Below, one piece after another: positions 2,425 through 2,793 of a stretch of DNA of 9,836 nt. The position numbers and the translations under genes were made by a program. Each line of letters begins with the position of its first letter. Positions within the stretch are counted from its first letter, which is position 1. The stretch is taken from the IMG/VR virus record IMGVR_UViG_2563366976_000007; one strand, 5' to 3'. Origin of the DNA: a virus. Its lineage: Duplodnaviria; Heunggongvirae; Uroviricota; Caudoviricetes. Below the pieces are notes generated by a model, which was not told the DNA's origin, did not search any database, and saw only the letters and a program-made list of their open reading frames with translations.

Positions 2425-2505
2425 TGGGCGCACACAATACAGCAAAAAAAATGAGATGTTAAGTATTGACATGTGCGCACACATGATTTTAATCTGTGCG
2501 CACAG
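2425..2505. promoter_or_regulatory. Divergent promoter/operator region with three TGTGCGCACA-type palindromes
   Basis: Perfect palindromes TGTGCGCACA (2473-2482) and CTGTGCGCACAG (2494-2505), plus a one-mismatch copy TGGGCGCACA (2425-2434). Rightward sigma70-like promoter: -35 TTGACA (2466-2471), 16-nt spacer, -10 TTTAAT (2488-2493). The palindromes overlap the spacer and the +1 region, and the third overlaps the leftward promoter of the RHH gene. Confidence 0.6.
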
Positions 2506-2595
2506 TTTGAGTTTTGTCACTCAAATTAAGCAACGCCCCGCAGTGCTCGCAACACATGCAGGGCGTCTAACCAACAACGTAAACTAGGAGCCGTT

Positions 2596-2793
2596 ATGGT
2601 TGCCGTAAATCATATACCACACCTTGTACACACACAAACGGCCTTTGTGTGGCGTTTTCTGGCACTGAGTGCCGGAGAATCCCAAATCATCCACGTAACC
2701 GCCTGGACGGAACGCGAAGCGCGTAGCCGTTGCCCGTCCGGTTGTGTTGCTGTATTCGCCGCCCGTATTCGTCAGGAGGTGTGCCATGCCTGA
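2596..2793 (+). CDS. Possible leader peptide / small upstream ORF (65 aa) in the early-operon leader
   Basis: AGGAG (2586-2590) 5 nt upstream of ATG 2596. Stop TGA (2791-2793) overlaps the start region of the next gene (ATGCCTGA). The protein is low-complexity and unrecognisable, and the same stretch carries a hairpin/T-run, so it may be a regulatory leader rather than a functional protein. Confidence 0.3.
   Translation: MVAVNHIPHLVHTQTAFVWRFLALSAGESQIIHVTAWTEREARSRCPSGCVAVFAARIRQEVCHA

Follow-up and report, generated by a model that had tools for sequence, protein, structure and literature searches.

A predicted cis-antisense RNA over the start of the icd-like gene that heads the early operon of an Escherichia coli phage satellite

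Silencing of the replication operon in Gram-negative PICIs is partly understood; what is known concerns activation by AlpA and, in some islands, RNAs of the C4/CI type. In P1, whose immI locus is arranged as c4 RNA, icd and ant as in P7, an RNA repressor reportedly blocks the icd ribosome-binding site (RBS), and downstream expression is said to need icd translation. Translation of icd in P1 gates transcription of the downstream gene, ant. Control of translation-initiation regions by cis-antisense RNAs is likewise of a well-known kind, with SymR/symE, Sok/hok (type I toxin-antitoxin) and P22 sar/ant as examples. Icd-like genes are already known from most satellites (PMC13612085), and C4 and isrK have been reported in Gram-negative PICIs (PMC10111431). 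For one system encoded by a prophage, the effector of cell death is, according to a preprint (10.1101/2023.04.06.535777), likely to be an Icd-like protein; tight control of such a protein would thus be plausible.

The stretch of DNA analysed here (9,836 nucleotides; the window) encodes an integrase, AlpA, a YlcI/YnfO protein on the minus strand, a D5-type primase, SSB, lambda-type capsid proteins E and D and a Nu1-like small terminase, and its cos region resembles that of phage 21. Judged by this gene content, it is a PICI-type phage satellite of E. coli. Eleven GGTGAACAGT iterons at 5238-5472, directly after the primase gene, account for the replication origin. When compared with a phage collection, the window gave DNA-level matches limited to the primase and the cos site, and a tblastn search with its Icd-like protein gave a single match, vB_KppS-Ant. 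The nearest relative, L001, lies in an E. coli chromosome between cspD and clpS. Positions 2466-2793 of the window are the head of the early (replication) operon, in which we distinguish the following features.

2425 to 2434: third copy of the palindrome TGTGCGCACA, with one mismatch
2466 to 2493, plus strand: putative early promoter, read off the sequence (-35 TTGACA at 2466-2471, spacer of 16 nt, -10 TTTAAT at 2488-2493)
2472 to 2481 and 2495 to 2504: two perfect TGTGCGCACA palindromes, bracketing the -10 of the early promoter
2501 to 2595, plus strand: predicted true 5'UTR of the early mRNA (about 95 nt), deduced from where the promoter and the ATG lie
2585 to 2590, plus strand: Shine-Dalgarno (SD) sequence of icd, TAGGAG
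2596 to 2793, plus strand: icd-like gene, 65 aa, family name 'host cell division inhibitor Icd-like protein'
2631 to 2651, plus strand: hairpin CACACAAA-CGGCC-TTTGTGTG, then GCGTTTTCT; codons 12-19 of icd (HTQTAFVW)
2786 to 3106, plus strand: next gene, 106 aa, with SD AGGAGG at 2773-2778; overlaps icd through ATGCCTGA

The promoter-like site, bracketed by palindromes and with a transcription start placed near 2500 from its position, would yield an mRNA with a 5'UTR of about 95 nt and the Icd-like protein as its first cistron. A consensus scan did not flag this promoter because position 2 of its -10 is T; sister elements have a TTGACA/GATAAT-type promoter at the equivalent position relative to the leader. 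The three TGTGCGCACA matches compare with 0.56 expected, a count reached in 4 of 200 shuffles, and the palindromes are presumed to be repressor operators.

A preliminary description of this DNA had read 2505-2793 as a structured, untranslated leader of about 280 nt enclosing a small ORF. The SD TAGGAG (2585-2590) and the ATG (2596-2598) lie in the sequence where that description put them, as does the 65-codon ORF, whose stop TGA (2791-2793) overlaps the next ATG (2786-2788) within ATGCCTGA. The ORF is a gene, however, and the supposed leader therefore resolves into a 5'UTR of about 95 nt followed by 198 nt that code for a conserved protein. The 65-aa product matches NCBIfam NF033153 (phage_ICD_like) over residues 17-60 with 64.7 bits (cutoff 25, E=5.8e-18). 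Its 113 database homologues vary at the amino-acid level around an invariant WRF and a conserved ARIRQ, and near-identical copies carry the same family name in RefSeq annotation. By homology, then, 2596-2793 is a bona fide Icd-like protein gene and not a leader peptide. Over 2505-2793 the plus strand does not fold unusually well (MFE -93.3, z=-0.95, equalled by 37 of 200 shuffles).

From the ATGCCTGA overlap, the 2786-3106 gene is predicted to be translationally coupled to icd. Its 106-aa product has no Pfam or NCBIfam family match, and the gene also lies downstream of icd in L001 and L005. Neither the minus-strand ORF at 2584-2802 nor the plus-strand ORF at 1868-2587 matches a family; the L001 counterpart of the latter is a partial pseudogene according to RefSeq.

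We defined membership of the C4 family (RF01695, which covers P1/P7 c4 and P4 CI) by a covariance-model score at or above the gathering value of 45 bits. Rfam searches of the whole window at E<=1 and of 2380-2850 at E<=10 found no C4, c4-a1b1 or isrK, and permissive scans of the window returned only chance-level miRNA/lncRNA matches. A C4/CI assignment of the window was thus rejected: it stays below the gathering score, while the same search gives C4 scores of 71-79 bits in relatives. Many islands of E. coli, and E. albertii as well, have isrK and C4 (72-79 bits) immediately upstream of icd; L001, L014, L015 and L019 carry a1b1, C4 and a second icd as a module after the first icd. Window positions 1-2780 align with L001 5693-8480 and positions 2760-6478 with L001 8918-12635, from which it follows that precisely the 437-bp C4 module (L001 8481-8917) is missing from the window. 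The junction lies within the shared 3' end of icd. The suggestion of RNA-based immunity of the P4 CI kind for this DNA points in the right direction, in that relatives carry C4/CI RNAs with isrK or c4-a1b1 beside icd; the window has no C4.

The window resembles P1/P7 immI in that a small icd heads the operon and overlaps the next cistron, and in that its sister satellites have C4 with a1b1/isrK right beside icd. It differs in having no C4, a1b1 or isrK, in a downstream gene with no detectable relationship to Ant, and in an Icd-like protein that matches only the NCBIfam Icd-like domain. Moreover, the regulator predicted below lies on the opposite strand and is fully complementary to its target, whereas the P1 type is sense-encoded and has short complementary loops. 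With P4 CI RNA (seqA-seqC; Rfam C4, isrK), the window shares the arrangement of a satellite with an RNA immunity factor, here a predicted one, in the leader of the early (primase) operon, and L001 has its C4 module exactly at the window's junction. In contrast to P4, the window is without these 437 bp, and while P4 CI acts through premature transcription termination, the RNA predicted for the window would be antisense over the icd RBS. This prediction involves a second set of features, most of them on the minus strand.

2523 to 2602, minus strand: predicted cis-antisense RNA of about 80 nt, the complement of the icd start codon, its SD and the greater part of the 5'UTR; z=-3.2 for the fold of 2603 to 2522; ends taken from the -10 and the terminator
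2532 to 2567, minus strand: conserved hairpin that folds best on this strand; predicted intrinsic terminator with the tail GCUUAAUUUG from 2531 to 2522
2566 to 2574, plus strand: invariant motif UCUAACCAA (minus-strand reading UUGGUUAGA) between the hairpin and the SD region; one copy in the window
2609 to 2614, minus strand: -10-like hexamer TATGAT, complement of ATCATA, codons Asn5-His6-Ile7
2637 to 2632, minus strand: possible -35 TTGTGT, with a 17-nt spacer; within the 5' arm of the 2631-2651 hairpin

Upstream regulators are unrelated between elements, and the homology of the window with islands that have such regulators begins at 2528-2531 and spans the hairpin, CUAACCA, the SD region and icd; the module boundary is the base of the 2532-2567 hairpin. 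A GTDB genome scan with an Icd alignment yielded only 3 loci, and we therefore drew diversity from E. coli assemblies and IMG/VR contigs, from which 75 unique leaders were gathered. For IMG/VR, a first pattern, TCTAACCAAN{15,30}ATGGYTG, was too loose (120 matches, mostly chance), and 13 real loci were retained through BLAST. The hairpin and an invariant CUAACCA are present in 75 distinct leaders, although these leaders are linked by descent and recombination, and their counts are therefore not independent and overstate the number of independent events. The region of the hairpin unit is found in 1117 of 5426 complete E. coli genomes (~20%), O157:H7 included.

Several lines of comparative evidence place the structure of the 2532-2567 hairpin on the minus strand rather than in the mRNA. 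Compensatory variants are many, among them CGCCCC/GGGGCG, AGCCCC/GGGGCU, GGCUG/CAGCC and GGCCUGA/UCAGGCC. In an alignment of 32 sequences in minus-strand reading (A2), 96.6% of pair cells are standard and double changes occur in 9 of the 13 pairs. Covariation scores 0.435, compared with 0.195 in shuffled alignments (0 of 500 shuffles reach 0.435), and slid controls are at most 57% paired. When the same columns are read on the plus strand, the proportion of paired cells falls to 82.3%. Among the 412 pair cells there are 59 with G·U on the minus strand and 0 on the plus strand, where those 59 read as A·C or C·A mismatches. The minus-strand form is the more stable one for each of the 34 distinct hairpins (mean dG -23.4 versus -17.2 kcal/mol). 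Folding of the window from 2603 to 2522 on the minus strand gives an MFE of -33.4 (z=-3.2, 1 of 200 shuffles); the plus-strand fold of this segment has an MFE of -23.3 (z=-1.6). A covariance model of the minus-strand unit (R1) scores the window at 70.8 bits on the minus strand versus 13 bits on the plus strand. Matches of this model outside its seed alignment are always antisense and just upstream of icd-like genes. Among them are O157:H7, where the copy in L262 scores 70 bits, and vB_KppS-Ant, in which Icd has an identity of only 59%.

The hairpin also has the properties of an antisense Rho-independent terminator of the SymR, Sok or sar type, in that the covariation and the 59:0 G·U asymmetry are joined by a U-rich tail on the minus strand only. 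The 8 nt past the hairpin contain a mean of 4.4 U on the minus strand and always exactly 1 U on the plus strand. In the window the tail has 4 U in 8; this tail is imperfect, and a simple terminator scan did not flag the window copy.

A minus-strand promoter could stand just inside icd. TATGAT, TATGCT or TATAAT occurs on the minus strand in 75 of 75 unique leaders and ends 4 or 10 nt short of the CAT that is complementary to the start codon; 52 of the 75 have a TGn extended -10. The His codon that supplies the A at -11 is CAT in 70 of 70 cases, and His-to-Tyr variants yield a perfect TATAAT. The hexamer is kept across N-terminal classes with different neighbouring codons and in the divergent loci L041, L110 and L261, and icd copies directly preceded by C4 are without it. 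The -35 on this strand is weak or absent, which is why a consensus scan makes no call here. The bases of the -10 double as codons (Asn/Gln-His-Thr/Ile), and protein constraint could thus explain part of their conservation. Given the weak -35 and this coding overlap, we infer the promoter step, as we do the transcript ends and the regulatory effect of the RNA.

The best reading of this unit, which we hold with moderate confidence, is a cis-antisense RNA of about 80 nt lying over the icd SD and AUG. Such an RNA would start a few bases inside icd from the minus-strand -10 TATGAT (2614 to 2609), pass over the AUG, the SD and CUAACCA on its way from about 2602 to about 2523, and end at 2532-2567 as a Rho-independent terminator. 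Its predicted fold (minus strand, 2603 to 2522) has two parts: a 5' stem-loop with the anti-SD CUCCUA exposed in the loop, and then the terminator hairpin. Once paired with the site of translation initiation, the RNA would prevent translation of icd; the replication genes further along would likewise stay silent in the quiescent island, as a result of translational coupling or polarity. If transcription is leaky, the RNA would in addition act as a buffer against a potentially toxic protein. Its functional equivalent in sister elements would be C4/CI. There the icd RBS would be under a C4/CI-type RNA in place of this unit or, for a second icd copy, alongside it, and the two RNA controls thus look like exchangeable cassettes.

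This predicted layout resembles that of SymR, Sok and sar, each a short RNA with a promoter just inside the start of the target coding sequence and complementarity to the AUG and SD. Like them, the predicted RNA of the window would consist of a recognition stem-loop at its 5' end and a terminator hairpin after it, and its target is a small, possibly growth-inhibiting protein. The window unit has no sequence or Rfam relationship to these RNAs, however, and it would act on a gene that opens a long replication operon, whereas a toxin of the stand-alone sort is not involved. Literature searches turned up no antisense RNA to icd for either PICIs or P4-like satellites, we found no Rfam family for one, and the minus-strand unit over icd is apparently undescribed. 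The cis-antisense mechanism leaves the invariance of CUAACCA unaccounted for, and we know of no counterpart of this motif in cis-antisense RNA systems. Sequences complementary to the hairpin loop or to CUAACCAA were sought inside the window and none were found. Readings of the hairpin and CUAACCA as boxA/nut-like, RNase P (ACCA) or rut sites were considered and dropped because the hairpin is a minus-strand structure and its loops are large and variable.

The minus-strand -10 and the hairpin are equally the basis of a different proposal, in which the transcript is of a leftward 'establishment type' in the manner of lambda PRE: it would start in icd, read through a leaky hairpin, drive the YlcI/YnfO gene (2397 to 2200) and oppose rightward expression. 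The imperfect U tail suggests partial read-through, and the minus-strand gene lies 135 nt past the hairpin. Against this, homology ends at the hairpin base, with unrelated sequence in the different elements beyond it, and the minus strand has another promoter-like site (2462 to 2434) that stands nearer the regulator gene. We regard such a transcript as unlikely.

A little less probable again is that no antisense RNA exists and that the hairpin serves the sense mRNA, for instance by stabilising it, by binding a protein or as part of a gate on the SD and AUG. The hairpin does form on the plus strand as well (mean -17 kcal/mol), the plus-strand MFE structure of the window pairs UAACCA (2568-2573) with UGGUUG (2597-2602) at the start codon, and the invariant CUAACCA suggests a sequence-specific role. 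However, the G·U cells of the minus strand are mismatches on the plus strand and the reverse is never seen, the plus-strand form is weaker in every one of the 34 variants with a z of only -1.6, and the start-codon pairing is not general across icd classes.

The preliminary description had placed an attenuator at the other hairpin, at 2631-2651. That hairpin, CACACAAA-CGGCC-TTTGTGTG followed by GCGTTTTCT, is present and is flagged by a simple terminator scan too, and CCACAC at 2617-2622 is able to pair with GTGTGG at 2647-2652, on the side of its 3' arm. A translation-sensitive attenuator could be built from these parts: the hairpin with GCGUUUUCU would terminate transcription, and CCACAC/GUGUGG pairing would oppose it, as set by the position of the ribosome in the small ORF. 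The gating of ant transcription by icd translation in P1 provides a precedent. In 13 related sequences, the synonymous sites of the stem never vary and two loop codons do, an invariance that supports the hairpin weakly at best; the WRF protein motif, or the -35 of a promoter on the minus strand, can account for the fixed bases just as well. The hairpin nevertheless lies inside the conserved Icd coding sequence and its segment (2612-2672) gains nothing over shuffles (z=+0.90; 165 of 200 fold as well). The stem of 8 bp has only 3 G-C pairs and its tail only 4 U, a natural GTG-to-ATG variant disrupts one pair, and the hairpin is missing from sister icd classes that have the same leader (e.g. HNLNKYIW and two-domain forms). 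These observations make the attenuator very unlikely. The strict sense of a leader-peptide attenuator, with a short non-conserved peptide choosing between hairpins, does not fit: the ORF belongs to a conserved family, and the terminator candidate sits within it at a z of +0.90 and is unconserved across classes.

Strand-asymmetric tolerance of G·T is also seen in ssDNA hairpins, and the element encodes a D5-type primase-helicase. The hairpin sits, moreover, at a recombination boundary between modules. It might accordingly work as ssDNA, as a minus-strand priming site or a replication or recombination signal. We consider this highly improbable: the origin is accounted for by the iterons, the position of the hairpin is fixed relative to the icd SD and AUG, and its promoter-like and U-tail flanks are typical of an RNA gene.

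Least probable of all is that the leader is the target of a trans-acting C4/CI-type RNA from a co-resident satellite or P1-like plasmid (cross-immunity, with an a'-like hairpin loop and a b'-like SD region): loop sequences differ between elements as expected of a specificity determinant and SD-proximal sequences look like the b' sites of C4-controlled icd copies, e.g. GUUAACAGGAG and GUUACAGGAG, but resemblances of this type have indels that interrupt contiguous pairing, seven C4 RNAs form duplexes with this leader (-35 to -44) that are no stronger than those with shuffled leaders (-43 to -45) and far weaker than those with cognate targets (-51 to -61), and the minus-strand G·U asymmetry is left unexplained. 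A search for a1/b1 and a'/b' target sites in the window had the same outcome, with no c4-a1b1/isrK match and pairing by the seven C4 RNAs at shuffle level.

With a cis-antisense RNA as the preferred reading, we put forward a wider scenario, tentatively and as a possibility that we think somewhat doubtful. Here Icd would be a toxic effector held off by RNA, and two kinds of regulator, a sense C4/CI RNA and an undescribed cis-antisense RNA of about 80 nt with the invariant UGGUUAGA, would have been swapped onto the same RBS by recombination between tandem icd copies. The window would be a natural 'antisense-only' version, and the unit a type I toxin-antitoxin-like or immunity switch in about one-fifth of E. 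coli genomes, including O157:H7. If the antisense RNA exists, ~20% of complete E. coli genomes, O157:H7 among them, would contain a second layer of RNA-based control; two non-homologous RNA repressors would have been exchanged on one target; and control of an Icd-like, possibly cell-killing protein would be tied to satellite quiescence or abortive infection.

As a minor point on annotation, gene calls for an 'Ash family protein' and for long 'Icd-like' products in these islands run through RNA genes or leaders.

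The window and its nearest relative, L001, differ by a 437-bp block of L001 (8481-8917) that is missing at window positions 2760-2780. This block contains c4-a1b1 and C4, both RNA families of P1/P4-type immunity, plus the body of a second icd copy. The icd gene of the window encodes a 65-aa Icd-like protein and opens the early operon. Because the junction falls within the 3' end common to the icd copies, our comparison suggests that the block may have been lost or gained via recombination of tandem icd copies. In another related island, L005, the first icd is a 5' remnant only, preceding isrK (a further RNA family of this type) and C4.

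Longer proteins lie behind the same leader as the window icd in L004, L033, L058, L121, L140, L041 and L110. Some post-leader proteins comprise two Icd-like repeats (MAGTQHTQTHPKFIYTF...FIWRF...), and others an Icd-like part with a C-terminal extension. The conserved hairpin unit on the minus strand is present twice in some islands (L022, L026, L065); in L022, a degenerate icd start follows the upstream copy.

L022 2051-2113: minus-strand hairpin unit, upstream copy
L022 2918-2980: minus-strand hairpin unit, second copy

Open reading frames of 104-108 aa annotated as 'ash family protein' match Pfam PF10554 (Phage_ASH; L005 3997-4327, and also P0040 and P0055). Their N-terminal ~40 residues are the translated C4 RNA gene, and the frame continues into icd. 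The Pfam match appears to cover a translated RNA gene, at least in the L005, P0040 and P0055 islands.

L005 3997-4084: C4 RNA gene
L005 4001-4327: 'ash family' ORF

Within the leader, UCUAACCAA (window 2566-2574) is invariant or near-invariant in all leaders of the window type, with the variants CUGACCA and UUAACCA. Cis-antisense action alone does not account for this invariance. Around the early promoter, the palindrome TGTGCGCACA occurs three times, twice perfectly and once with a mismatch; the two perfect copies are nested in the larger palindromes CATGTGCGCACACATG and CTGTGCGCACAG. The corresponding site in sister elements has other palindromes, distinct in each element, such as GTGTACCCCCAC/GTGGGGGTGCAC in the phage record vB_KppS-Ant.

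2425-2434: TGTGCGCACA palindrome, copy with the mismatch
2472-2481: TGTGCGCACA palindrome
2495-2504: TGTGCGCACA palindrome

This region also holds a 239-aa open frame that matches no family and whose first third is annotated in RefSeq as a partial pseudogene in L001; the frame is unlikely to be a gene. Short minus-strand ORFs lie beyond the hairpin that follows the YlcI/YnfO gene.

1868-2587, plus strand: 239-aa open frame spanning the minus-strand YlcI/YnfO gene, promoter and leader, and stopping at the icd SD
2164-2190, minus strand: strong terminator-like hairpin (12 pairs), directly past the YlcI/YnfO gene

Eleven copies of a 10-11-nt iteron, GGTGAACAGT, lie in both orientations at 5238-5472, adjoining the primase gene on its downstream side; this array is probably the satellite replication origin. 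A weak Rfam match to 'MIR1508' (5311-5400) is accounted for by this repeat array. An 80-nt stretch at 9111-9194 shares 83-96% identity with the cos/IHF region found in phage 21 and its lambdoid relatives. Together with the Nu1-type gene that follows, it fits a putative cos-packaged PICI exploiting lambdoid helpers.

9294-9836: Nu1-type small terminase gene, after the cos/IHF-like stretch
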